The notes under the pieces are model-generated. The model was not told the origin of the DNA, did not search any database, and saw only the letters and a program-made list of their open reading frames with translations. The translations under genes were made by a program, and so were the position numbers. DNA of 32,000 nucleotides from Breznakia blatticola (lineage in GTDB: Bacteria; Bacillota_I; Bacilli_A; Erysipelotrichales; Erysipelotrichaceae): contig NZ_SODD01000017.1 of NCBI RefSeq assembly GCF_004365815.1, forward strand, positions 11,354-43,353, read 5' to 3'. Shown here in pieces: positions 2,230 through 23,784 of the stretch (the stretch's first letter is position 1; each line of letters opens with the position of its first letter).

Positions 2230-4860
2230 ATGAGATTACAACAGATCAAAGAACATACCATGATTTTAGCACCATCCTATTTACACAAACAATTACGTAG
2301 TGATTTACTCAAGCAGACAAATGGCTTAGCAAACGTAAGTATTATGAGTGTGGATACGTATCTAGCAAGTTTACTAAGGAATAACTATGATGCATATCCA
2401 TATCAATGTTACTTAGCGATGCAAGATTTAGCACTTACGTATTTTGCGGGTGTAAAAGATAATACCGACTTCATAAACGAAGTCGTTCAATTTGTGGATG
2501 ATGTAAATTTCTATGGTATAGATGCAAATCAATTAAAAGAAAGTGATGTCTATTTAAAAGAATTGAAAGACATTGTTTTTAACTTGCTAACAATACCAAG
2601 TGCAAGCAAGGAACAACGGGAACGATTGTATGCTCTTGATGATGCATCAAATATCGTAATTATCGATGACTTTGCAAATGAAAGACATCGATACATTTAT
2701 GATGTACTCCAACAAAAAGGAGCAACACATATTGCCCCAAATCTTGTTCAACCAAACAAGGAATTTTACTATGTCTTAAATAAGAAAGAAGAATGTGAAG
2801 CTGTGGCACGTTATATCATTGGACATGATATTGATGTGAGTAAAGCAAAAATGACATTGTTAGATACATCGTATCAACCATTTATTGAACAGATATTTGA
2901 TCGTTACCATATTCCGTATTCATTTCAAAGTTTACGTAAGAAAAATCGTATGATTTTTTCATTCACGAGTTTACTTGCGTATTATCTACAACCAGATAGT
3001 GAACATTTAGCTGCCTTATTTGAAACAGAGGTTTTTGTTCATCCAAAGGCACAAGCATTTGTAAATTATGTGCAAAGCTTTCAGTGTACACTTGAGGATA
3101 GTTTTACACGCATGGAAGATCATGTTGATGCTGCTCACAATACCATTGATGCAAATACGCGCGAAGCATTCAAAAAATTGGAACTTGATGCACGTGAAGT
3201 AAAAACTGAAGTATATGAGAAGCTAAAATATTTACTATCATGTTTTTTGCAAGAAGCAATTGTATACATTGAACAACTTGTGGTAGATAATAGTAGTTTT
3301 ACAAGTATTGAAGATGTGCAAACCATTCGTCAAATTCGTAAAGAAATTAAAATTAGCTACACCTATATAAATGAAAAAACAATTTCGTTATTTATTGAGC
3401 GCTTAGAAGCATTGCAACTCAAGCAATCCAAAGAAATGTTAGGCTTACAAATTGGTGAACTTACACAGCCGACAAAAGAGATGGACTACCATTTTGTACT
3501 AGGTGCTACGGCCAATCATTTTCCTGGATTTGTTGCTAAGAGTGGCTTGTTTTCAGAAAACTATATTAAACATACCGACTATCCAAGTTTAGAAAGTCGT
3601 TATGAATTTCATGTACAACAAGCAATCGATTCTTTACAGACAAGTCAAAATCTTATCGTATTTTATGCAACCAGTGGACTTGATGGAAAGGTTCAACAAC
3701 CTTCACTAGAAATAGAAACACTGATGCAACAACAAGCAAAACCATATCCATTACCATTTGCATATCAAATGTATCAAGTTGATACAAACTTACAACCAAC
3801 ATATGCAAAAGCATTATTTCAAAAAGATGGAATGTATATGGGTTCAGTATCCGCTTTTGAAATGTATGCAAACTGTCCATATAAGTATTTCTTGCGTCAT
3901 GGTTTAAAAATCTATGAAGAAGCAAAAAATCCATTAGATAACTCAACGACAGGTACACTCATGCACTATATTTATGAGTCGCTTACTTCACAAATGGGAA
4001 AAAACTATGCTAGTGCATCATGTGCAGAAGTTGCGCATTTGATAGCTAGAGAAAGTAAAGCACTTGCAGATGTATATGTGCAAAATGCAAAACAACTACA
4101 AATGAGTCAAGAACGCTTATTACAATCCCTTATGCAAAACCTGGCATATTTAGAAATGTTTGAAGAAACAAGTCATTTAGTACCCACTGCTTTTGAGTAT
4201 GAATTTTATGCAACCATTCCAACAACTCACGCAAACGTAAAATTGCATGGATATATTGACCGTTTGGATATGAACCGCGATTTTGTAAGTGTCATTGACT
4301 ATAAAAGTAGTGCAAAGAAACTAGATTTAAAAGAAGTACGTAAAGGTATGAAACTTCAACTTCCTACATACTTATATGTGGCACATCATGAATTCCAACG
4401 TCGTCCAGTTGGTGCATACTACTATAGCTTACAAAATGGAAAACAAGCTGCATACTATGCAAAGATGAACCGAGGAAAACTAATCGAACAAAGCGAAGAA
4501 GGTCGTAAGCAAAACTTTGAGAAAACAAAGAAATTATCTGGTTGGACCACATCTACAGATTTCCAAGTGATGGATCAGGATGAACGTTTTATTGATGGCA
4601 TTGCAAGAAAGAAAGATGGAAGTTTTAGTGCATCAACAAAGATTTATAATATTGAGGCAGTTGAAACCTTATTAAAAGCAAATTTAGAACGAATTGTGGA
4701 CAACTTAATGCAAGCCAATATTCGCATTGAACCAGTTAGTTGTGCATACTGTAAATATCAAGATATTTGTCATAACCGCAAAGATGGATATGAAAGAGAT
4801 ATGTTAGATGTCGATCAAGATATCTACTTAGTTGGAAAGTTAAAGGAGGAAAGTCAGTGA
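2230..4860 (+). CDS. addB: Helicase-nuclease complex subunit B (AddB/RexB type, no Walker A)
   Basis: C-terminal PD-(D/E)XK nuclease motif (GYIDRLD ... VIDYKSS) and Fe-S Cys set (ANCPYKYF ... CAYCKYQDIC) typical of AddB. No GxxxxGK[ST] anywhere in the N-terminus, as in RexB of lactic acid bacteria. The stop overlaps the addA GTG start (GTGA). The start is uncertain (ATG 2230 or ATG 2260) and neither has an SD. Confidence 0.8.
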   Translation: MRLQQIKEHTMILAPSYLHKQLRSDLLKQTNGLANVSIMSVDTYLASLLRNNYDAYPYQCYLAMQDLALTYFAGVKDNTDFINEVVQFVDDVNFYGIDANQLKESDVYLKELKDIVFNLLTIPSASKEQRERLYALDDASNIVIIDDFANERHRYIYDVLQQKGATHIAPNLVQPNKEFYYVLNKKEECEAVARYIIGHDIDVSKAKMTLLDTSYQPFIEQIFDRYHIPYSFQSLRKKNRMIFSFTSLLAYYLQPDSEHLAALFETEVFVHPKAQAFVNYVQSFQCTLEDSFTRMEDHVDAAHNTIDANTREAFKKLELDAREVKTEVYEKLKYLLSCFLQEAIVYIEQLVVDNSSFTSIEDVQTIRQIRKEIKISYTYINEKTISLFIERLEALQLKQSKEMLGLQIGELTQPTKEMDYHFVLGATANHFPGFVAKSGLFSENYIKHTDYPSLESRYEFHVQQAIDSLQTSQNLIVFYATSGLDGKVQQPSLEIETLMQQQAKPYPLPFAYQMYQVDTNLQPTYAKALFQKDGMYMGSVSAFEMYANCPYKYFLRHGLKIYEEAKNPLDNSTTGTLMHYIYESLTSQMGKNYASASCAEVAHLIARESKALADVYVQNAKQLQMSQERLLQSLMQNLAYLEMFEETSHLVPTAFEYEFYATIPTTHANVKLHGYIDRLDMNRDFVSVIDYKSSAKKLDLKEVRKGMKLQLPTYLYVAHHEFQRRPVGAYYYSLQNGKQAAYYAKMNRGKLIEQSEEGRKQNFEKTKKLSGWTTSTDFQVMDQDERFIDGIARKKDGSFSASTKIYNIEAVETLLKANLERIVDNLMQANIRIEPVSCAYCKYQDICHNRKDGYERDMLDVDQDIYLVGKLKEESQ

Positions 4861-7800
4861 GTCTAAATCAAGAACAACAACGTGCAGTTGCTGCTAGAAA
4901 TACGAATATTCTTGTATCTGCAAGTGCTGGTGCTGGAAAAACAAAAGTTTTGATTGAACGACTCATGTCTTTAATCACACAAGATAAAGTAGAAGTTAGT
5001 GAAATACTTGCTATGACTTTTACAGAAGCGGCAGCAGCAGAGATGAAAAAGCGACTTGCAGCATCTCTATCAAGTACGTACGAACAAACAAAGGATCCAT
5101 TTCTAAAAGCGCAACTGGCAAATTTAGAAAGTGCAAACATCTCAACAATTCATGGATTTTGTTTGCGTATTTTAAAAGAATATTACTACATGATTGATCT
5201 ACCTAAAAAACGTGTCAATCATCCATTAGATGAACAACAAGCAAGTATGCTAAAAACAAATGCACTAGAAAGTGTACTAGCATATGCCTACCAACAACCA
5301 TGGTTTCCAAGCTTCGTGGAAGTTTTTAGTGATCGACCAGAATCATTAGGAACTTTGGAAGCATCCATCAATCAATATGCAAATGTGGTAAATGCAAAAG
5401 CAGATCCACAAGCATATATAAAACACTGTATGGATTACTACAAACCTATTGATACAATTGCACAGTTACCTAAAGATATTCAACACTATTTCTTTCAAGG
5501 AATCGAACTAGAACTAGATGTACTTATTGATGCACTAACACAAGTAGAATTTGAATATAGTGATGAAAGTAATCTTGTAAAAGAAGAACGTTACCAGAAA
5601 GCAAAGGCTGCCATTCTTGCACGTGATTATGAAAGTTATCGTGCAGTATTAAAAGCAACGGTGCAACTAAAAAGTCCAGCCAAAACCAAAAGTGCATATT
5701 ATACGACAATTGCAGAAGTGGAAGATCGTTTACTGCAACAAGCATTTAGTGAAAAAGAGTATGTGAGTTTCCATAATGCAAATGTTGAAGTAATGCATCA
5801 CTTTATTGAGTTAACCCAAATGTTTCTTGCGCATTATGAAAAAGAAAAGCAAGAATACGAGTGTATTGATTTCTCGGATATGGAACACTATGCAATTGCT
5901 ATACTACAAGCAAAAGGTGGGCATGTCGCAAATCTTTTAAAGCAACAGTTTAAAACGATCATGGTAGATGAATTCCAAGATAGTAATGATGTTCAAGATA
6001 CACTAATTAAACTCATTGCGAAAGAGGATAATGTCTTCCGTGTTGGTGATATTAAACAATCTATTTATGGATTTCGTAATGCTTCACCAGAAATTATGAA
6101 AGGCTTTATCGATACACCTGATGCAAAAAATGAAGTGATTTTCTTTAAGTACAATTATCGTAGTAAAGAAAGTATTGTAGAGTTTACCAATCAATACTTC
6201 AAGGCACTGATGAATATTGAAGGACTTTCTTCATCTTATGAAAGTGATGATGTTGTTAGTGTGGGTCGTGACCAACAAAAGGAAAATAATGTACCTGTGC
6301 AAATTCACATTATTGATAAGAACTTAAAGAAATCAGATGCATGGGCAGAAACACCAAATGATTTAACGACTTCATATATTGCTAATCAAATTCTAAAAAT
6401 AAAAGCAGAAAAAGGATATGCATTTAAAGACTTCGCGATTTTAGTTCGTGGCAATGCTAAAATGAAAAGCATTAACGAAGAATTAAGTGAACTAGGAATT
6501 CCATGTTTTTATGCAAATGCAGAAGACTTCTATAAAAATGTAAGTATTACATCCGTTATTTCTTTTGTTAAGGCGTTGGTGAATATGCATGATGATCATA
6601 ATTTTATTGCTTTATGTACATCTTGTTTCTATCAAATTCCTGCAAATGATCTAGCAAAAGCAAAACTAGAAAAAGCTGAAGATAGTAGTTATGCAACGTA
6701 TTTTGAAAATGATGAACGACTTGCATCTTTCTATGAATTACGTGAACACATTTACAAACAACCTGTTTCAAAAGTGATGAAAAGCATCTATGATATTAAC
6801 GATTTCTATATGTCGTATACGACGTTACAAGATAAAGCAAACTTGGATTTACTTTATGAAATTGTATGTCAGAAAGAACAAGAAGAGGCAATGGGAATTC
6901 AGGGCTTCTTACGTTATATTGAGCAAGTACAAAATCTAAAAGTACCAGAAGCATTTCCATTAGGTGAAGGAGATGATGTCGTTCGTTTGATGACGATACA
7001 TAAATCCAAAGGATTGGAATTTAAAGTTGTCTTCTTAGTAAGCTCACAAAACAAGAATGCACAATCCAATTTTCTAGCAACAGATGATGAACTTGGAATT
7101 GCAGTTGACTATGTGGATGCCAAAAACTATCAGATTTATAATGATATTAGTAAAATTGCAATTAAGAATAAACAGTATCTTAATTCACTTGAAGAAGAAC
7201 TACGTGTTTTGTATGTTGCTATTACGCGAGCGGAGTGTGAGATGCATGTTGTAGGAACGGGAAATGAAACCGAAATACTTGATGCAAACTTCCAGAACTT
7301 CTACAATACCAAAGGGTTTATATGGTGGATGCGTATGGGGTTACATGATGTTGATGCATCGTTATACCACATTGAGTATGTTGATGAAGTGTGGACAAAT
7401 CAAACACAAGAAACAAAGAAAATGGAATACACGCAAACATATTACGATAAACAAGCAAGTGAAGTTGTATTTGCTTCACCAAGTGATAGTGAAACATTTG
7501 TGCAAAAACCACAGCCATTCTCTTTACAAGAGGATGTCGGCTTTGAAAGAGGGAGCAATCTTCACCGTATGGTAGAAGTCTTACCTAATACAACTTGGGA
7601 TGATGCATTGCTAACACAAGTAGCAAATGCAGAAGCGATTACATTGCATGCACATGATATGCAAGTCTTACAAAAACTACAAAATGAGCAGTTGTATCAG
7701 CAAGCATCAAGTTTTCATGAAGTGTATCATGAGTTTGCATTTATGGTTAAAGATGATCAAGAAATCATGCATGGATATATGGATTATCTTGCAATTGATG

Positions 7801-12684: not shown

Positions 12685-13209
12685 TTATCGTTGATATAAA
12701 TTTGTTCCTTGTGCATCTAAAGCGATCGTGATAGGAAAATTCTCGACAGTTAGTTTTAAAATGGCTTCTGCACCTAAATCAGCAAAAGCTACAGGCTCTG
12801 CTTTTTTAATGCATTTCCCTAATAAAGCACCAGCCCCACCAATGGCAACGGCGTAGAGTGCTTGATTTTTTATAATTGAATCTTTGACTGCTGAACTTCG
12901 ATATCCTTTTCCAATGGTACAACTTACACCTAAGTCATAAAGTGTTGGTGCATAAGCATCCATTCTTGCAGATGTTGTAGGACCTGCACTACCAAAGGTA
13001 TGTCCTGGTTGTGTTGGGGTTGGTCCAACATAATAAATGGTTGCATCTTGTAAATCAAAGGGAAGAGATTCATTGTTTTGAATCATTTCAAACAAACGTT
13101 TATGCGCCGCATCTCTAGCTGTATATAATTCACCACTAAGATAAATGAAATCTCCGGTTTTTAAGTCTTTCATTTTATCTTTGGTTAAAGGTAGTTGAAT
13201 GTGTTTCAT
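12685..13209 (-). CDS. Fe-S hydro-lyase beta subunit (class I fumarate hydratase / L(+)-tartrate dehydratase beta type)
   Basis: Family-typical sequence (GPTTSARMD, AVAIGGAGAL). The start was moved to the ATG at 13209 (MKHIQLPL...), which forms an ATGA overlap with the alpha-subunit stop (tcat at 13206-13209 on +). The track start 13245 would overlap the alpha gene by 40 nt. Confidence 0.85.
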   Translation of the reverse strand: MKHIQLPLTKDKMKDLKTGDFIYLSGELYTARDAAHKRLFEMIQNNESLPFDLQDATIYYVGPTPTQPGHTFGSAGPTTSARMDAYAPTLYDLGVSCTIGKGYRSSAVKDSIIKNQALYAVAIGGAGALLGKCIKKAEPVAFADLGAEAILKLTVENFPITIALDAQGTNLYQR

Positions 13210-15397: not shown

Positions 15398-15426
15398 TTT
15401 ACAACACATGCACACAATAATAAAAT
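15398..15426 (+). promoter_or_regulatory. Candidate sigma-A promoter upstream of the sigma-factor gene
   Basis: TTTACA (15398-15403), a 17-nt CA-rich spacer, TAAAAT (15421-15426). Confidence 0.35.
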
Positions 15427-15454
15427 AGCCCTTGTGTGAATTTTTAAAAAGTGT

Positions 15455-15479
15455 CCAACCTTTTGGACTTTAAAAAGTC
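15455..15479 (+). promoter_or_regulatory. ECF-like promoter motif, site 1 (upstream of the sigma gene)
   Basis: CCAACCTTTTggactttaaaaAGTC. It has the same 9-mer and the same spacing as the sites at 16810 and 19463, and lies 34 nt before the ATG at 15513. Confidence 0.4.
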
Positions 15480-15512
15480 TTACGTATATGATGTGTGAAT
15501 GAGGAGTTTTAA

Positions 15513-16808
15513 ATGAACAAACGGATAGATGTAACTTATGTGCGAAAGTTACAAGAAGGAGACCTTACTGCCTTGGAGGAAATATATCGTTTTTACCAAG
15601 GGCCAATATATTATTATGCACTTTCAATTTTGAAAAATAAGCACGATGCAGAAGAAGTTATGCAGGAAGTGGTGTATAAAGTGCAAACAAGAATTCATCA
15701 ATTAAAGAATCCAGAGTCTTTTCATTTCTGGATGTTTTCTATTGCATCAAATGAATGTACTTCACGGTTGCGTGTACGTAAGCGATTCATCCAAACCGAT
15801 GAAGAAAACACACTTGAAGAGGTGATAAAAGCAAAAAATAACCAAATTAATGATTTTAATAATTCGACACTAATGGGTGCAATATTAAATTCATTTCAAA
15901 AATTAAGTGAGAATAATCGAAGGACAGCTGAACTACGTTACTTGAGTGGACTAACTTTAGAAGAAATCGCAAAAGCAACACATGTGGAAACGAAAACTGT
16001 AAAGAGTAGGTTGTATGAAGTACGAAAGATGGTCTCAAGTGACTTGAAAGAGCAAGGTTATCATCCACGTAAATATTTTACATTTTTGGGGATTCCACTG
16101 TTTTATAAGGAAATGCAGTTAACTTTTCTTAAAGAGCGAAATAAAGTTCTATTAAAGGACTATTCGTCAATGCAAACATTGATGCAAATTATCACTAATG
16201 CAGAAAAGATTAGTCTATTTTTAAGTTGTGCAATTGCATCGGTAGTAATAACTCCCGTAATACCAGCAATAGTTAACGTTCCAACAAATGATTTGATTGT
16301 ACTTCCTGCAACTGCATCAAACATTCAGTATAAAAAGTCTGATCGTATAGGTGTTATTGATACAATCTCATATATTCAAAATCCAATTGCTGGTCCTTTA
16401 GAAGTACGGGTGTATGTATACGATATGTCAAAAATAGAAAATATCTCTATTACTTATGAAGGTATTGAATGTAACTATCAAAAATATGAGACTTATGTAG
16501 GTATAAACGTTGTTAAAAATGGAAGATATCACGTACGAATAAATAATGATGAAAAGTTTTTTGACGTAACAAATATTGATTATGATATTCCGATTGTTGA
16601 AAGATTGGATTTTTATGATGATTCATTTGAAATCGTTGTTAAGGTAACTGTGAATCAAGTAGATGTTGAGAAGTCGTATCTATTGATTGATCAACAAAGA
16701 GTATCGTTTCCAAAAGATTTTATTGTGTCTGTGAAAGATGCAGAAAATGTCGATGTGATCTTAGTTGATGATAAAGGAAATGAAAATTGCTTTAATTTTA
16801 AAAAATAA
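15513..16808 (+). CDS. ECF-type sigma-70 family factor fused to a TM helix and a ~175-aa extracytoplasmic C-terminal domain
   Basis: Region 2 (DAEEVMQEVVYKVQTRIHQLKNPESFHFWMFSIASNECTSRLRVRKR) and region 4 (RRTAELRYLSGLTLEEIAKATHVETKTVKSRLYEVRKMV) with no region 3. One hydrophobic helix ISLFLSCAIASVVITPVIPAIV (16209-16274), then a beta-rich domain of unknown family. SD GAGGAG is 6 nt before the ATG. Confidence 0.8.
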   Translation: MNKRIDVTYVRKLQEGDLTALEEIYRFYQGPIYYYALSILKNKHDAEEVMQEVVYKVQTRIHQLKNPESFHFWMFSIASNECTSRLRVRKRFIQTDEENTLEEVIKAKNNQINDFNNSTLMGAILNSFQKLSENNRRTAELRYLSGLTLEEIAKATHVETKTVKSRLYEVRKMVSSDLKEQGYHPRKYFTFLGIPLFYKEMQLTFLKERNKVLLKDYSSMQTLMQIITNAEKISLFLSCAIASVVITPVIPAIVNVPTNDLIVLPATASNIQYKKSDRIGVIDTISYIQNPIAGPLEVRVYVYDMSKIENISITYEGIECNYQKYETYVGINVVKNGRYHVRINNDEKFFDVTNIDYDIPIVERLDFYDDSFEIVVKVTVNQVDVEKSYLLIDQQRVSFPKDFIVSVKDAENVDVILVDDKGNENCFNFKK

Positions 16809-16809
16809 A

Positions 16810-16834
16810 CCAACCTTTAAAAGGTAAGTGCGTC
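16810..16834 (+). promoter_or_regulatory. ECF-like promoter motif, site 2 (upstream of the surface-protein gene)
   Basis: CCAACCTTTAaaaggtaagtgCGTC, i.e. AAC-N16-CGTC, the textbook ECF -35/-10 geometry. It starts 2 nt after the sigma gene stop. Confidence 0.5.
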
Positions 16835-16936
16835 GTACTGGTAAGGATATATATGTGTGAGGAGGTAGCAATGATCAAGAGAAGAAAAGTGTAAATGTTT
16901 TAACAAAAGTTATGTGTGAAAATAAAGGAGGAAACT

Positions 16937-19363
16937 ATGTTAAAAAGAAATAAAAAATTTTTAGTTTTATTAATAGCAGTTATGTTTATTACAAGTACTG
17001 GTTTTACTGATGAAGTACAACCAAACGAAATCAATGAACCAATTGAAGATGAACAAACGACTTACGAAGAGAAAGTATTAGAAGATGAAAAAGAAGACAC
17101 CAATGTATTTATAGTAGATGAAGAAAATACAACGCAAGAAGACGTTGTAGAAAAAAGTATGAATAATTTGACTCGTGCTACTGATGAAAGAGTCATATAT
17201 GCACAAGATAATATTGGAGTTGAATGGATATTGTATGCTGATGGAGAATTGGTTATCCATGGTGGTACCATCAATATCATTACAGATTCAAGCAAACGAT
17301 ACTTCAAACAATATTCAGATATTATCACCTCTATTACCTTCGCTGGAGATGTATACTATACACGCCCAGATGGAGGACTTGGTAACTATATGTTTGCTGA
17401 CTTAAAAAACTTAGTAACTGTGAATAATTTTGATCGATTTAAATTAAGTGGAGATGCATCTGGATTATTTATAGCGTGTGAAAAGTTGAAAAATATCGAT
17501 ACAACAAATTTTGCCACTGACAATATTACAAATTTTACAATGATGTTTTCCTATTGTGAGTCACTTGAGTATATAAATGTAAGTAATTGGAATGTAGATA
17601 ACGTAACATCTATGTGGTCAATGTTTAGTCATTGCTATTCATTAAGAGAAATCGATATATCACAATGGACGTTTAAAAATGCAACTGATATTTCCTATGT
17701 GTTTTATAGATGTCGAGAATTGTTAGAACTTGATTTTTCTAGTATGGATCCAGTTAATGAAGTCACTAAGGAAAAGATGCTTGGTAGTGAGCTAGCAAGC
17801 TCAATGAGAAACAAACTGCGTAAAATAACACTTGGTAAAACCGCACTAGGTGCTAATACAGATATATATGCCAGAGATTGGAGAGAACTTGATACAGGCA
17901 TCGTTCATTCGGCTAAATTTTTGGATACACACGATACAAGTAAAACAATTACCTATATTTGGGATGCGAAGCATGCAGTTTTCTATAATCCAGCAGGTGG
18001 AACATTGACTGGTCCTGCAAAAGAGGAAGTTGATGTTATAGAAAGTTCATTTACTAAACCAACAGACCCAACACATGAGCATGCTACATTTGTAAGATGG
18101 TTTACTTCAAGATGGGATTATGATAAAAAAGAGCTTATTTATGAAGAATGGGACTATAGTAGTATTCCAGTTCTAAACATGCCTTATACTACTGAAGTGT
18201 ATGCAGAGTGGGACTACGATACTTATAAAATTTCATATGAATTAAATGGTGGAACGATTAGTCAATTATATCCAACAGAATACAAGTATAATACAGAAGT
18301 ACGGGGATTTAACACTCCATCTAAGGAGGGATATTTCTTCCTTGGATGGTATGATGCAAATGAGGGTGGTAACAAAGTAACTTCGATTAGTTCAACAGAA
18401 TTTGGTGATAAAAAACTATATGCACGTTGGTCTCCTAGAATGTATCAAATAACTTATGAACTAGATGGCGGAACAAACCACGACTCAAATCCAAGTTCAT
18501 ATGCATACGATACAGGTGTGAGCAAACTTGAAAATCCAACGAAAGAAGGATATACATTCATTGGATGGTTTGATGATGTAAATGAAGGTAATCAAATTAC
18601 AAGCATCGATAAAAAGTCAAAAGAACATGTAACGATTTATGCACGCTGGATGGCAAATCAATATGCAATCATTTATGAGCTAAATGGTGGAATTAATGAT
18701 ACAAATAATCCGACTTCATATGCTTACGAACTAGGGGTAGACACATTTGAAGAGCCGACAAAATATGGACATACTTTTTTGGGATGGTATGATGCACCTG
18801 AAAAAGGTAATCAAATCACAAATATAGCGAAAGATTCTATTGGTCATAAAACACTATATGCAAAATGGAAAGTAAATGATTACAAGGTAAACTATGAGTT
18901 AGATGGTGGAATAAACTCCCTTGATAATCCAATGCAATATACATACGGTATTGGAGTGAGTGAATTTGAAAAACCGAATAAAGAAGATTACACATTTATT
19001 GGTTGGTTTAATGCAGCAGAAGATGGAAAAGAGATTACTAATATTGATGGTTCAACTGCTGAAGATGTAACATTATATGCACGTTGGAAAAAGAACGAGA
19101 AACCTACACCTCCTAGTGAAGAACCATCAAAACCTATTGAAAAACCAAATGACGATAAAAACAGTAATACAAATATAACCGATACAAATAATGACAAAGC
19201 AAATGTGAATGCAAGTGTAGCTCCTACTTTTAGCGGAACACAAGCAAACGCACAAACTCCGGTTGATACAAGTGATAGTGTGAATCGAGATGCTCTATTA
19301 TATGTTGGTATAATTTCGTTGTTATCGATTGTAGTTTTATTAAAAAGAAAACATTCAATTTAA
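16937..19363 (+). CDS. Cell-surface protein: signal peptide, BspA-type LRR (DUF285-like) region, five Listeria-Bacteroides (InlB B-repeat/Flg_new) repeats, Pro/Asn/Lys-rich stalk, C-terminal TM anchor
   Basis: The start was moved to ATG 16937 (MLKRNKKFLVLLIAVMF...), preceded by AAGGAGG at 16925-16931. The track's GTG 16916 lies in the leader. LRR units have the form W-N/T-v-x-N-v-T-x-M-x-x-MF-x-x-C-x-x-L. Repeats have the form Y-x-I-x-YELNGG...NP..Y.Y...........P.K.GY.F.GW.......G..IT.I........LYA.W. C-terminus is ALLYVGIISLLSIVVLLKRKHSI. Confidence 0.85.
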   Translation: MLKRNKKFLVLLIAVMFITSTGFTDEVQPNEINEPIEDEQTTYEEKVLEDEKEDTNVFIVDEENTTQEDVVEKSMNNLTRATDERVIYAQDNIGVEWILYADGELVIHGGTINIITDSSKRYFKQYSDIITSITFAGDVYYTRPDGGLGNYMFADLKNLVTVNNFDRFKLSGDASGLFIACEKLKNIDTTNFATDNITNFTMMFSYCESLEYINVSNWNVDNVTSMWSMFSHCYSLREIDISQWTFKNATDISYVFYRCRELLELDFSSMDPVNEVTKEKMLGSELASSMRNKLRKITLGKTALGANTDIYARDWRELDTGIVHSAKFLDTHDTSKTITYIWDAKHAVFYNPAGGTLTGPAKEEVDVIESSFTKPTDPTHEHATFVRWFTSRWDYDKKELIYEEWDYSSIPVLNMPYTTEVYAEWDYDTYKISYELNGGTISQLYPTEYKYNTEVRGFNTPSKEGYFFLGWYDANEGGNKVTSISSTEFGDKKLYARWSPRMYQITYELDGGTNHDSNPSSYAYDTGVSKLENPTKEGYTFIGWFDDVNEGNQITSIDKKSKEHVTIYARWMANQYAIIYELNGGINDTNNPTSYAYELGVDTFEEPTKYGHTFLGWYDAPEKGNQITNIAKDSIGHKTLYAKWKVNDYKVNYELDGGINSLDNPMQYTYGIGVSEFEKPNKEDYTFIGWFNAAEDGKEITNIDGSTAEDVTLYARWKKNEKPTPPSEEPSKPIEKPNDDKNSNTNITDTNNDKANVNASVAPTFSGTQANAQTPVDTSDSVNRDALLYVGIISLLSIVVLLKRKHSI
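17975..19087 (+). repeat. In-frame tandem coding repeats, 219-bp period (73 aa): one divergent plus four canonical units
   Basis: The conserved terminal Trp codons fall at 18209, 18428, 18647, 18866 and 19085, exactly 219 bp apart. The units are diverged at DNA level, so this is not a recent duplication. Confidence 0.85.
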
Positions 19364-19371
19364 TGACTAAG

Positions 19372-19403
19372 GACTTTGTAGTAAATACTATGAAGTCTTT
19401 TTT
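19372..19403 (+). terminator. Rho-independent terminator after the surface-protein gene
   Basis: Stem GACTTTGTAGTA / TACTATGAAGTC (two G-U pairs) followed by T6. Confidence 0.7.
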
Positions 19404-19462
19404 GTTGAATCAAGGGGATTCTCGATAAATTGAAAAATAAAGTGATTTTCCTTACGAAAAAT

Positions 19463-19487
19463 CCAACCTTTTTCAAATATATGCATC
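19463..19487 (+). promoter_or_regulatory. ECF-like promoter motif, site 3 (upstream of the orphan structured locus)
   Basis: CCAACCTTTTtcaaatatatgCATC, with the same 9-mer and spacing as sites 1 and 2. It lies downstream of the terminator at 19372-19403, with no annotated ORF behind it for ~230 nt. Confidence 0.35.
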
Positions 19488-19653
19488 TAATTAATAGAAG
19501 GTAATTAGATTATTATTCTTCTTAGGATAGCCTATGTCCTACAAACTTCCTTATAAAACACACACATAAACACACAAACGGAAAAACACTAGGCGGGTAT
19601 TTTATACCAAGTACAATTGAGGGATTGTACACTACTTACTATTTAGGTAAGTA

Positions 19654-19693
19654 AAAAGGTCAACTTTGCATGTATATGTTAAGTTGACCTTTT
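19654..19693. terminator. Strong orphan hairpin (terminator or attenuator) in intergenic DNA
   Basis: Perfect 13-bp stem AAAAGGTCAACTT / AAGTTGACCTTTT with a 14-nt loop. The A4/T4 flanks are part of the stem, so the U-tract is short in either direction. Confidence 0.6.
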
Positions 19694-19728
19694 CCATTAT
19701 AAGATGGTTATAAACGGAGTTGATGTTT

Positions 19729-20199
19729 GTGAAATCCCTATGGCATTCAGCATACAAAGATGGTAGTATTTTAGTAACGGAATTATCGTTCATGCTATGG
19801 CGGAAAGGCGAGGGGATAATGAGTAAGTATCAAGATGAAAAACTAGGGAATCAATTCTTGGGACAACTGAAAGACTTAAAAGATATTCATAATTATCATG
19901 AGTATGTTGATTTTGTGCGTCATTATATTGAGTACATTTGGGGAGGAAATACAAAGTTATTGGATACCAATCCATTTGGTGTAACATTATTAGCTACACA
20001 TGAAGAATATGATGAAACGATTGCAGTTGTGGTGTTGTATCAAAGTAGTGATGTTGCATATGAGCAAATTATGAGTGCTCTTGAGGGACAAGCATATATG
20101 CAAACCAACAGTTTAAGTGTGATTAGTAATCAGTCGATGGATGCGGCTGCTAAAACACTAGCAGAAGATCATTCCATCCTATATTTTAAATTCTCGTAA
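19729..20199 (+). CDS. Hypothetical small protein with degenerate Mrr-like (restriction-endonuclease-fold) sequence pattern
   Basis: Open frame 19720-20199. Plausible starts are GTG 19729 (GGAG 9 nt upstream) or ATG 19819 (MSKYQDEK...). Family assignment is by eye only; see findings. Confidence 0.5.
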   Translation: MKSLWHSAYKDGSILVTELSFMLWRKGEGIMSKYQDEKLGNQFLGQLKDLKDIHNYHEYVDFVRHYIEYIWGGNTKLLDTNPFGVTLLATHEEYDETIAVVVLYQSSDVAYEQIMSALEGQAYMQTNSLSVISNQSMDAAAKTLAEDHSILYFKFS

Positions 20200-22325: not shown

Positions 22326-23324
22326 TTATGCATTCATACTTTCTTCTAAAATAGCTTTAACATCTTCTTTACTCAGTGTTTTGTAGCCACCAGTGTTTAG
22401 TGGGGTACCAGCAACAATGCCATCATACATTTCAGGAGTAACGCCTAAGTCTTTAACACTTAAGACAAGTCCGAGTTCTTTCATGAAGTCTTCCATTGCT
22501 TGTAAACCTTCAAGGGCAATTTGTGTATCATCTTTGTCTTGTGCTTGTACATTCCAAACGTTCATAGCATAGCGTTTAAATTTAGCCACACCATAAGGTA
22601 AAATCATTTTATAGTATGGAATTGATACAGCAGAAAGTGTCATTCCGTGTGTTGCATCAGTATACGCACCAATTGATTGTCCAATCATATGAACTTCCCA
22701 GTCTGTTGTTTTTCCAGCAGCAACAAGTGTATTTAGTGCCCAAGTAGATGTCCACATAATGTTACTTCTAGCTTCATAGTCCATTGGGTTTTTCACGGCA
22801 ATTCTTGCGCTGTGAATTAATGATTTTAGTAAGCCTTCCATAATGTAGTCTGATGTATTATCATCATTTCCTGAAAAGTATTGTTCAAGAATATGTGACA
22901 TAATATCGAAACATCCAGCAACCATTTGATACATTGGAACTGTAAATGTGTACTCTGGGTTTAAAATCGCAAATTTAGGGAATACATTTGGACCGTATAC
23001 ATGTCCAATTTTTAAATTTGTCTTCGGATTCGTAATAACAGATCCTCCATTCATTTCAGAACCAGTTCCTACCATTGTAAGAATACAACCAACAGGGATG
23101 ATTTTATTGTCTACTTCTTCCATTCGTAAATAGTACTTATCCCATGGATCTTCTTCGCAGTATGTACTCACTGAAACTGCTTTAGCATAGTCTACAGTGG
23201 AACCTCCACCAAAAGAAAGCATAACTTTTGGTCCGTAGTTTAGTAGTTCTTCTTTTAATGAAGCAAGTGCGTCTTTTCCAAAATGTAATTTGGTTGGGTT
23301 ATAGTATGTAAATGTACCTAACAT
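22326..23324 (-). CDS. Iron-containing alcohol dehydrogenase (YqhD/BdhA subfamily) carrying an in-frame ~56-aa internal deletion; possibly non-functional
   Basis: The N-terminus FTYYNPTKLHFGKDAL...KVMLSFGGGS runs directly into TVDYAKAVS...DPWDKY. Metal-site residues appear retained (CFDIMSHILEQ, HMIGQS...THG). The start is ATG 23324, with AAAGGAGG 7 nt upstream. The track's 24-codon 5' extension covers the promoter and is rejected. Confidence 0.8.
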   Translation of the reverse strand: MLGTFTYYNPTKLHFGKDALASLKEELLNYGPKVMLSFGGGSTVDYAKAVSVSTYCEEDPWDKYYLRMEEVDNKIIPVGCILTMVGTGSEMNGGSVITNPKTNLKIGHVYGPNVFPKFAILNPEYTFTVPMYQMVAGCFDIMSHILEQYFSGNDDNTSDYIMEGLLKSLIHSARIAVKNPMDYEARSNIMWTSTWALNTLVAAGKTTDWEVHMIGQSIGAYTDATHGMTLSAVSIPYYKMILPYGVAKFKRYAMNVWNVQAQDKDDTQIALEGLQAMEDFMKELGLVLSVKDLGVTPEMYDGIVAGTPLNTGGYKTLSKEDVKAILEESMNA

Positions 23325-23361
23325 GGTATTTCCTCCTTTGTTGTTTCCAACATCTATTTGC

Positions 23362-23392
23362 ATTCTACAGGCTAAAGTTAACTTTAGGTCAA
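23362..23392 (-). promoter_or_regulatory. MerR-style promoter: -35 TTGACC, 19-nt spacer containing a perfect 16-bp palindrome, -10 TAGAAT
   Basis: The - strand reads TTGACCTAAAGTTAACTTTAGCCTGTAGAAT. The palindrome CTAAAGTTAACTTTAG is at 23372-23387. The -10 lies ~38 nt upstream of the ADH ATG. Confidence 0.5.
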
Positions 23393-23784
23393 GCATAAAA
23401 TAAAAAAATAATCCGTCTATGACAAAAATGCTTTATTTCATAACATTAAGCATTTGTAAGAACTGTAAGGTGGTATAACTATCCATGTAAGGGAAACCCC
23501 CTTATTGACACACATACACATGAATGAAAAACTGTGCCTGCACTGTACGGTTTTGGACACTTCGGGTGTTTTTTTTATACCTTTTCAGTCAAATGCTTTA
23601 TATTTTGAAATCATGACAAACAATATGACATCATAATCACAAATACCATTCTTTCAAATGAATCTATATGTTATAATTAGTCTCGAAAAGAGCAAACTTT
23701 ACATAAAATAGTTATTTATACAATTGACTATATCGTTTGCTACTGCTTTTATTAACAATGAGATGCTAAGGGAGTATAGCTGGT

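Follow-up and report, generated by a model that had tools for sequence, protein, structure and literature searches.

A putative autoregulated extracytoplasmic function sigma factor locus in Breznakia blatticola with candidate promoters before the sigma gene, a surface-protein gene and a predicted small RNA

The locus described here lies in a 32-kb stretch of DNA (the window) from Breznakia blatticola, an insect-gut bacterium of the family Erysipelotrichaceae. It consists of a gene for a 431-amino-acid (431-aa) extracytoplasmic function (ECF) sigma factor fused to a transmembrane helix and an ectodomain, a gene for an 808-aa surface protein, and a structured non-coding stretch that follows the surface-protein gene. 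A motif of the form CCAACCTTT-N12-NRTC lies upstream of each of the three, in the same orientation as the unit that it precedes. These three copies, referred to as sites 1, 2 and 3, have the appearance of ECF-type promoters and are listed with the other features of the locus and of related loci in Table 1.

The 9-mer CCAACCTTT was searched for on both strands of the window. It is present three times, always on the forward strand, compared with 0.23 expected copies, and three or more copies are found in none of 100 dinucleotide-preserving shuffles. The full pattern matches the same three places and no others. One-mismatch variants of the 9-mer stand at chance level (7 seen, 7.7 expected); all four of the additional ones fall on the reverse strand. 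Intergenic DNA makes up 6.8% of the window and contains all three copies, each with an A-rich tract on its 5' side. The tetramer following AAC-N16 is AGTC at site 1, CGTC at site 2 and CATC at site 3, and the window sites have the layout of ECF promoters, with a -35 AAC and a -10 CGT or GTC about 16-17 nt apart. An earlier reading of this stretch, made from its letters alone (the sequence-only reading), had reported the 9-mer at these three places and nowhere else on either strand, the AAC-N16-xxTC spacing, the forward orientation, intergenic position and 5' A-rich tract of every site, and the ECF promoter form of site 2 (AAC-N16-CGTC). All of this, coordinates included, proved accurate on rechecking.

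Site 1 is located 34 nt 5' of the sigma start codon, and site 2 begins 2 nt past the sigma stop codon. A terminator scan found no terminator between the sigma gene and site 2, and identified a 14-bp stem followed by a T-run that would close the sigma/surface-protein transcription unit. Because this good terminator precedes it, site 3 appears to open a separate unit. A housekeeping-type promoter candidate 5' of site 1 is a possible source of basal sigma expression. Site 1 is also overlapped by a perfect palindrome, GTCCAA-CCTT-TTGGAC (15453-15468), which the scan flagged as terminator-like on the reverse strand. A different inverted repeat, ACCTTT-A-AAAGGT (16813-16825), overlaps site 2, and none was seen at site 3.

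Table 1. Positions of predicted features at the sigma locus of the window and of corresponding elements at paralogous loci
Feature	Locus	Position	Strand	Sequence, rank or basis
Housekeeping-type (sigma-70-like) promoter candidate	Window	15398..15426	+	TTTACA-17-TAAAAT; consensus scan, 10/12 matches, consensus only
Site 1, ECF-type promoter before sigma gene	Window	15455..15479	+	CCAACCTTT-N12-AGTC; motif; matrix rank 1st of 63,914
Site 1, -35 element	Window	15455-15463	+	
Site 1, -10 tetramer	Window	15476-15479	+	
Predicted 5' untranslated region of sigma mRNA	Window	15487..15512	+	ATGTGTGA 15491-15498; Shine-Dalgarno GAGGAG 15501-15506; predicted small RNA pairing site
Gene for 431-aa fused ECF sigma factor	Window	15513..16808	+	Pfam, NCBIfam, hydropathy, AlphaFold models, Foldseek
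Site 2, ECF-type promoter before surface-protein gene	Window	16810..16834	+	CCAACCTTT-N12-CGTC; matrix rank 3rd of 63,914
First leader module, surface-protein mRNA	Window	16853..16894	+	ATGTGTGA, Shine-Dalgarno GGAGG, upstream open reading frame; predicted small RNA pairing site
Upstream open reading frame, 7 codons	Window	16871-16894	+	MIKRRKV*; inside first leader module
Second leader module, surface-protein Shine-Dalgarno region	Window	16912..16936	+	ATGTGTGA-N7-AGGAGG; predicted small RNA pairing site
Gene for 808-aa surface protein	Window	16937..19363	+	Pfam, NCBIfam
Intrinsic terminator of sigma/surface-protein unit	Window	19369..19400	+	Terminator scan; 14-bp stem then T-run
Site 3, ECF-type promoter of small non-coding unit	Window	19463..19487	+	CCAACCTTT-N12-CATC; matrix rank 2nd of 63,914
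Predicted sigma-dependent small RNA, ~200 nt	Window	19494..19696	+	5' hairpins, unpaired core, 3' terminator hairpin
Small RNA core	Window	19546..19575	+	CTTCCTTATAAAACACACACATAAACACAC; anti-Shine-Dalgarno segment plus CACACAUA; complementary to UAUGUGUG…GGAGG leaders
Terminator-like hairpin ending the small RNA	Window	19654..19695	+	13-bp stem then UUUUCC
Leader-like element, 5' of truncated iron-containing alcohol dehydrogenase-like open reading frame	Window	23486..23530	-	AUGUGUAUGUGUGUCAAUAAGGGGG
Non-coding unit	L085	12773-12948		Promoter 12743; terminator ~12905-12947
Non-coding unit	L093	6277-6430		Promoter 6247; strong terminator 6389-6428
Motif before sigma gene and before its neighbour, 2 copies	L001			TTCAAACT…ATATCTAAC
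Motif, 4 copies	L085			CCAACATT-N10-TCCGTCaTATA
Motif, 3 copies	L093			CMAACYTTTT…CTCCT
Motif, 2 copies	L090			GAACCA-N13-GCATCwAA
Motif, 2 copies	L005			GAAC-N17-CGTC
Motif before sigma genes	L091, L092			GAAC-N17-CGAC or -TGTC
Motif flanking sigma gene, 2 copies	L088			CCAACCTTTTT; -10 element not clear

The protein encoded downstream of site 1 contains sigma2 and sigma4 regions (aa ~1-185), one transmembrane helix (aa ~231-258) and an ectodomain (aa ~280-431). Pfam places Sigma70_r2 at aa 25-91, Sigma70_r4_2 at aa 123-172 and Sigma70_ECF at aa 10-178. Only sigma2 and sigma4 are present, with neither sigma1.1 nor sigma3, as in ECF sigma factors generally. Among the NCBIfam models, no equivalog or subfamily model is passed, only that of the generic ECF superfamily, TIGR02937 (81.4 bits, cutoff 42.9). 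The top Foldseek matches of the sigma part are SigW, AlgU, sigmaE, SigK and CnrH. A single hydrophobic segment is seen by hydropathy at aa ~231-258 in all six aligned family members, from which the topology is predicted, and the AlphaFold model shows a helix (H218-246) followed by a beta-rich domain (aa 280-431). The ectodomain is modelled as all-beta, with a predicted local distance difference test score (pLDDT) of 85.8, and in Foldseek resembles a tandem immunoglobulin (Ig)/fibronectin type III (FN3)-like fold. Pfam finds no domain, FecR-like or other, in the C-terminal extension. A typical ECF sigma gene has a cognate anti-sigma gene beside it; no separate anti-sigma gene adjoins this one, the flanking genes being those for a malic enzyme and the surface protein according to Pfam, and the fused transmembrane helix and ectodomain are found instead.

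Fused sigma factors of this kind are ~420-460 aa in length. An initial search listed six family proteins, and an exhaustive HMMER search recovered full-length matches in more than 100 clusters (at 50% identity), so the initial picture of a tiny family was misleading. Members with named sources come from B. blatticola, B. pachnodae and Erysipelotrichaceae bacterium MTC7. A genome-collection scan with the full-length family alignment, dominated by generic ECF sigma factors, included at least one full-length relative, that of L005 (Breznakia sp. PF5-3), among the matches listed, and scans of metagenomic and viral sequences with the ectodomain alignment gave no matches. No characterised member of the family was found. 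Of the paralogs, at least four (P0001, P0002, P0003 and P0005) belong to B. blatticola, and P0003 is probably on the same 43,353-nt contig as the window, outside the 32 kb. Look-ups by exact protein sequence gave no record for the window sigma, P0001, P0003 or P0005. Genes for the paralogs cluster, and in B. pachnodae a second member lies within 2-10 kb of the first (L090 20938; L092 13191).

The surface protein has a signal peptide, a DUF285/BspA-type leucine-rich repeat (LRR) region and a C-terminal hydrophobic anchor. Four matches to the Flg_new (Listeria-Bacteroides) repeat model are found by Pfam, and NCBIfam reports List_Bact_rpt, PARCEL and internalin-like repeats. The sequence-only reading had placed a fused sigma factor after site 1 and an LRR/B-repeat surface protein after site 2. 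The Pfam, TIGR02937 and structural matches, together with the helix and ectodomain, bear out the first, and the DUF285/BspA-LRR and Flg_new matches the second.

Nine further loci (L001, L005, L085 and L088-L093) consist of a sigma gene followed by another gene on the same strand. The downstream genes mostly encode LRR, Flg_new or large adhesin-like proteins; those of L089 and L092 have no domain match on record. A candidate site is present 5' of the sigma gene in L001, L005, L085 and L090-L093. L088 shows a weak resemblance only, and no candidate was found 5' of the L089 sigma gene. In L001, L085 and L093 a variant of the motif also precedes the neighbouring surface-protein gene. The AAC-N16/17-xxTC geometry is kept at the nine sub-clade paralog sites (L001, L085 and L093) and at the GAAC-type sites of L005 and L090-L092.

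A position matrix was trained on the nine sites of L001, L085 and L093 only and then scanned over the window. The three best of 63,914 window positions are sites 1, 3 and 2, with scores of 26.8, 24.7 and 23.4, and the next best position scores 10.1. In the reverse test, in which one locus at a time was left out, the L085 sites rank first to fourth and all 12 sites are within the top 0.1% of their own locus. Because the paralogous loci repeat the layout and the matrix ranks the window sites first to third, an autoregulated ECF mini-regulon is well supported by comparison. The sequence-only reading had suggested that the sigma factor autoregulates and drives the adhesin and the site 3 transcript; the paralog motifs and matrix ranks point in the same direction, and the three sites are probably cognate promoters of the adjacent sigma factor.

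The motif could instead be recognised by another of the paralogous fused ECF sigma factors, at least four of which are encoded by B. blatticola, or could be an operator for a DNA-binding regulator, as the palindromes overlapping sites 1 and 2 are typical of operators. However, each paralog locus has its own variant of the motif before its own sigma gene and neighbours, and the palindromes differ between the two sites and are not seen at the third. The constant part is the pair of -35 and -10 blocks, fixed in spacing and preceded by an A-tract, and such a pattern marks a promoter rather than an operator. This alternative is consequently regarded as improbable, and recognition by the adjacent sigma factor is preferred.

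Two additional ECF-type sites were observed several kb from a sigma gene. One, in L091 (4258-4285, GAACGATTT…ACGACTAAT), is intergenic and precedes glycogen-synthesis genes; the other, in L092 (8503-8527, GAACC…TGTCTTATATA), precedes a 114-aa open reading frame (ORF). Because of their distance, some paralogs may have targets past the immediate neighbour. In L001, a housekeeping-type promoter (TTGACA-17-TATTAT) occurs 5' of the P0002 sigma promoter, in a region (1287-1520) that includes ~200 nt of non-coding sequence with CTTTCCTTATGTGTGTAAAG and a strong terminator at its end, with the remnant of a sugar-kinase C-terminus just before it. This element could be a different kind of small RNA (sRNA), or debris.

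The stretch downstream of site 3 folds far better than shuffled sequence (z-scores -5.1 to -5.7), in agreement with the structured non-coding locus that the sequence-only reading had put there. No Rfam family matches at gathering thresholds anywhere in the window, and around site 3 only microRNA noise (E<=1) was seen, so that homology to a described sRNA family was not found; a tRNA scan of the whole window found nothing. Units of like build are located 3' of the surface-protein gene in L085 and L093. All three are predicted to be short, terminated non-coding transcripts. Each has an ECF-type promoter followed by a 5' hairpin, a core that is left unpaired and, at the 3' end, a terminator. The core sequences are CUUCCUUAUAAAACACACACAUAA in the window, CAUUCCUUAUUAAAACACACAC in L093 and CUUCCUUUCCACACAUAUA in L085, and the L093 core is nearly identical to that of the window (TTCCTTAT-T-AAAACACACAC). 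Across the three loci the predicted probability of being unpaired is 0.69-0.78 for the core compared with 0.35-0.42 for the rest of the RNA (0.78 and 0.35, respectively, in the window). Taken together, the sequence and predicted structure make it fairly likely that a discrete RNA is made from site 3.

No ORF common to the three units was found by eye. A small peptide was considered as their product and rejected: the 11-codon ORFs of the window and L093 are unrelated in sequence, and L085 is without one. Pattern scans for the core returned 13 metagenomic and two viral matches. The metagenomic matches have unrelated flanks and are taken to be chance matches rather than relatives. A candidate sRNA in the distant locus L088 (reverse strand, after the second CCAACCTTTTT) was also rejected; the sigma initiation region ranks only 664th of 4240 as its partner.

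On the same strand as the site 3 unit, a 159-aa ORF (19720-20199) contains an internal ATG at 19819 that is probably its true start and would give a protein of 126 aa (MSKYQDEK…). Site 3 might then be the promoter of the ORF at 19819-20199, with the structured stretch forming a 5' leader that contains a transcription attenuator. The ORF begins ~120 nt 3' of the terminator hairpin, and the T-run of that hairpin (19654-19695) is weak (UUUUCC), so some read-through is possible. However, in L085 a further ECF-type promoter and a 1122-aa gene come after the corresponding unit, while the unit in L093 ends in a strong terminator and is followed by a convergent radical S-adenosylmethionine gene. As it lies between two terminators and adjoins a convergent gene, the L093 unit is clearly a unit of its own. 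The ORF itself has no Pfam or NCBIfam match and no annotated counterpart beside the units in L085 or L093. In addition, the conserved part of the units is the unpaired anti-Shine-Dalgarno/CACACA core and not an attenuator structure. An attenuated leader is thus unlikely, and a separately terminated sRNA is the favoured description of the site 3 unit.

The predicted targets of this sRNA are suggested by the leaders of the two upstream genes. The window contains three copies of ATGTGTGA, all in leaders 3' of sites 1 and 2, and each copy is immediately 5' of a Shine-Dalgarno sequence. The surface-protein leader carries two such modules in series, the first of which includes a 7-codon upstream ORF (uORF). 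A matching uORF arrangement, following an ATGTGTG plus Shine-Dalgarno module, is found in L093 (~4163-4183), where the peptide is MESITQ*. The arrangement is therefore conserved between the window and L093 but the peptide is not, which suggests that the uORF is either regulatory or left over from a duplication of the sigma leader.

The mRNAs of sigma and the adhesin carry UAUGUGUG…GGAGG in their leaders, of which the sRNA core, CUUCCUU…CACACACAUA, is the reverse complement. Among 24 translation-initiation regions of the window, the best partners of the core are those of sigma (-20.4 kcal/mol), the surface protein (-17.9 kcal/mol) and the uORF (-17.2 kcal/mol), followed by a next-best region at -14.5 kcal/mol. 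The chance of these three regions taking the top three of 24 places is 1 in 2024. When both strands of L085 and of L093 are considered, no other non-self partner surpasses the sigma initiation region (-25.7 in L085, next -19.2; -22.1 in L093), and in each of the three loci the start region of sigma comes first or second among the predicted targets. With dinucleotide-preserving shuffles of the core, pairing at least as strong as that observed is reached in 0 of 1000 trials for the window, 4 of 1000 for L085 and 23 of 1000 for L093. By these computations the core would form a conserved, accessible seed complementary to the initiation regions of its targets.

On the strength of these pairing ranks, energies and shuffles, a feedback sRNA that occludes ribosome-binding sites is proposed. 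A cell-surface signal would free or activate the sigma part through regulated proteolysis, by analogy with IutY and with the proteolysis of anti-sigma factors. The sigma factor would then direct RNA polymerase to promoters of the form CCAACCTTT (-35)-N12-xxTC (-10), leading from site 1 to its own gene (positive autoregulation), from site 2 to the surface protein and from site 3 to the ~200-nt RNA. The core of the RNA would mask the Shine-Dalgarno sequence of the sigma mRNA and those of the 7-codon uORF and the surface-protein mRNA, and the outcome would be delayed negative feedback on a self-amplifying loop. The motif with its geometry and paralog-specific variants, the identities of the genes, the sRNA-like build of the site 3 unit and its complementarity to the leaders are shown by sequence and comparison. 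We infer transcription from the sites, its dependence on sigma, the mechanism of activation and repression by the RNA. The last of these, repression of sigma and its neighbour by occlusion of their ribosome-binding sites, is put forward as a tentative prediction from the sequence complementarity.

Several observations weigh against parts of this interpretation. The -10 tetramers differ among the window sites, and the canonical CGTC is found at site 2 only. B. blatticola has at least three other paralogous sigma factors, so the assignment of the sites to the adjacent one rests on co-variation of motif and locus. The weak U-tract of the window sRNA terminator has been noted above. Searches with blastn and nhmmer starting from the three units link none of them together and reveal no further copies; the units are regarded as homologous on the basis of position, promoter, architecture and a ~19-nt core. 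The longest word common to the units is 12 nt, a length reached in 4 of 500 shuffles. The pairing of leader motif and sRNA occurs in one sub-clade only (the window, L085 and L093), with L001 having the leader motif alone and L005 and L088-L092 lacking the pair. Finally, the sRNA cores pair about equally well with the leaders of other loci, and as a result there is no compensatory co-variation to serve as proof of the pairing.

An element at ~23.5 kb on the reverse strand of the window also resembles the leaders. Here a degenerate copy of site 1 precedes the element (23486-23560, AAGTGTCCAAAACC… compared with AAGTGTCCAACC… at site 1). It shares AAGTGTCCAA with site 1 and carries a leader-like AUGUGU…GGGGG. 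No other part of the window is predicted to pair as strongly with the sRNA core as this element (-26.4 kcal/mol). The sequence upstream of it, CCAAAACC…, was considered as a fourth promoter and discarded on its matrix score of about -12. The element may be an additional target of the sRNA or a fossil of the copied module. The presence of a degenerate copy without a promoter score indicates that the promoter-plus-leader module gets copied and decays.

Such decay raises the possibility that all of the repeats are neutral leftovers of a promoter-plus-leader duplication, in which case the copies at site 3 and at 23.5 kb would be in decay, inverted in part and without present function; the degenerate copy, which no longer scores as a promoter, is an example of the process. 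However, the three 9-mers of the window are identical, and loci whose sigma proteins share only 41-45% identity with that of the window keep the geometry, the A-tract, the core and the terminator. In the same loci the flanking non-coding sequence has changed so much that no similarity is detected, a contrast that argues for selection. A purely neutral origin is therefore considered very improbable, and functional promoters with an associated sRNA remain the preferred interpretation.

The ORF that follows the 23.5-kb element (22326-23396, reverse strand) resembles iron-containing alcohol dehydrogenases. It matches the domain model only from position 80 (residue 55), and its ATG has no visible Shine-Dalgarno sequence in front of it. 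About 50 nt 5' of this ORF is one of 17 codons (MDSYTTLQFLQMLNVMK*) that does have a strong Shine-Dalgarno sequence. The dehydrogenase-like gene may be truncated or a pseudogene.

A broader, more speculative model is that the sigma modules of the Breznakia sub-clade each encode their own sigma-dependent anti-Shine-Dalgarno sRNA. It would act directly on translation of the sigma mRNA and, by way of a leader containing a uORF, of the co-induced adhesin mRNA, silencing both and converting the self-amplifying loop to a pulse generator. As the promoters differ and the cores are interchangeable, the modules would be insulated at the level of transcription and cross-inhibiting at the level of RNA. 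If true, one or a few adhesins would be displayed at a time.

The locus may be viewed as a compact and self-contained signalling module, defined from sequence alone, that combines a surface sensor fused to a sigma factor, a cognate promoter code, an adhesin-type output and, in one sub-clade, a predicted RNA brake. The paralog-specific promoter variants provide a ready-made set of possibly orthogonal sigma/promoter pairs, and the many sigma/adhesin pairs suggest how an insect-gut bacterium may pick the surface protein that it displays. If confirmed, the RNA would be an ECF-dependent sRNA in Erysipelotrichia acting directly on the mRNA of its own sigma factor.

The sequence-only reading did not recognise the arrangement as a described system. 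This holds for the combination of parts, which is new, but not for the components, which are all of known kinds. Since autoregulated ECF promoters, the IutY fusion and ECF-dependent sRNAs are already known, the locus is not a wholly undescribed system; the terminated ~200-nt non-coding unit headed by site 3 is new here.

The promoters of SigW, SigX and SigM in Bacillus subtilis have a -35 AAC, a 16-17-nt spacer and a -10 CGT. The window sites resemble these and other autoregulated ECF promoters of Firmicutes in their two-block motif, AAC followed by (C)GTC or ATC, and in their location upstream of the sigma gene and adjacent targets. They differ in that the extended -35 element CCAACCTTT and the loose -10 element are specific to the paralog, and in contrast to sigma factors of the SigW/SigX/SigM type, that of the window is without a separate anti-sigma gene. 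According to a classification of these proteins (PMC7826278), ECF sigma factors usually autoregulate, are encoded together with their targets and have group-specific promoter motifs.

In IutY of Pseudomonas putida, an ECF sigma factor and an anti-sigma factor are fused in one membrane-spanning protein that is activated by Prc/RseP proteolysis, and IutY has been called unique among cell-surface signalling proteins for fusing both functions (PMC7593790). The window sigma has the same layout, with an N-terminal ECF sigma factor, one transmembrane segment (as predicted) and an extracytoplasmic C-terminal domain in a single chain. However, its host belongs to a Gram-positive lineage (Erysipelotrichaceae), its ectodomain is a tandem Ig/FN3-like beta-sandwich with no FecR-like domain, and its target is an adhesin-like surface protein rather than an iron transporter. 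The coupling to a TonB-dependent receptor that is characteristic of IutY is likewise not seen, as none was found by Pfam among the flanking genes tested.

C-terminal extensions are known in 19 ECF groups, including ECF41, ECF42 and ECF263 (Casas-Pastor et al. 2021; PMC7826278). The extension types named in the available part of that text are SnoaL-like, tetratricopeptide repeat, Cys-rich and DUF1835 domains or five to seven transmembrane helices (PMC7826278). As far as these descriptions go, the window sigma is similar in having an ECF core with a long C-terminal extension in place of a separate anti-sigma factor. In a comparison made by description, and limited to the portions of the literature available, no described ECF group of Firmicutes or Erysipelotrichia with a single transmembrane helix and a tandem Ig-like ectodomain was found.

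Small RNAs that depend on ECF sigma factors include MicA, RybB and MicL, which are sigmaE-dependent in Escherichia coli and Salmonella, and reportedly FoxI and FoxJ of Fusobacterium nucleatum. Similar to MicA, RybB and FoxI, the unit described here is predicted to be a small terminated RNA with an ECF-type promoter and an unstructured seed directed against the initiation region of a surface-protein mRNA. In contrast to these, its predicted targets are the mRNAs of its own sigma factor and a co-induced neighbour, not abundant porins. The unit is also situated inside the sigma locus, along with which it has been duplicated, and belongs to no Rfam family.

The multi-paralog arrangement is functionally closest to the SigI/RsgI sets of Clostridium thermocellum, although it is not a member of that family. 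Those sets comprise many paralogous sigma/sensor modules with their own promoter variants, autoregulation and cell-surface protein targets, and in both cases a membrane-spanning protein with a beta-rich ectodomain would sense the outside of the cell. Signalling through RsgI is proteolytic (PMC10328401, PMC12203970). The ectodomain of the window sigma is without a Pfam match of the carbohydrate-binding module type. SigI is not an ECF sigma factor and RsgI is a separate anti-sigma factor, whereas here the sigma factor and the sensor form a single chain.

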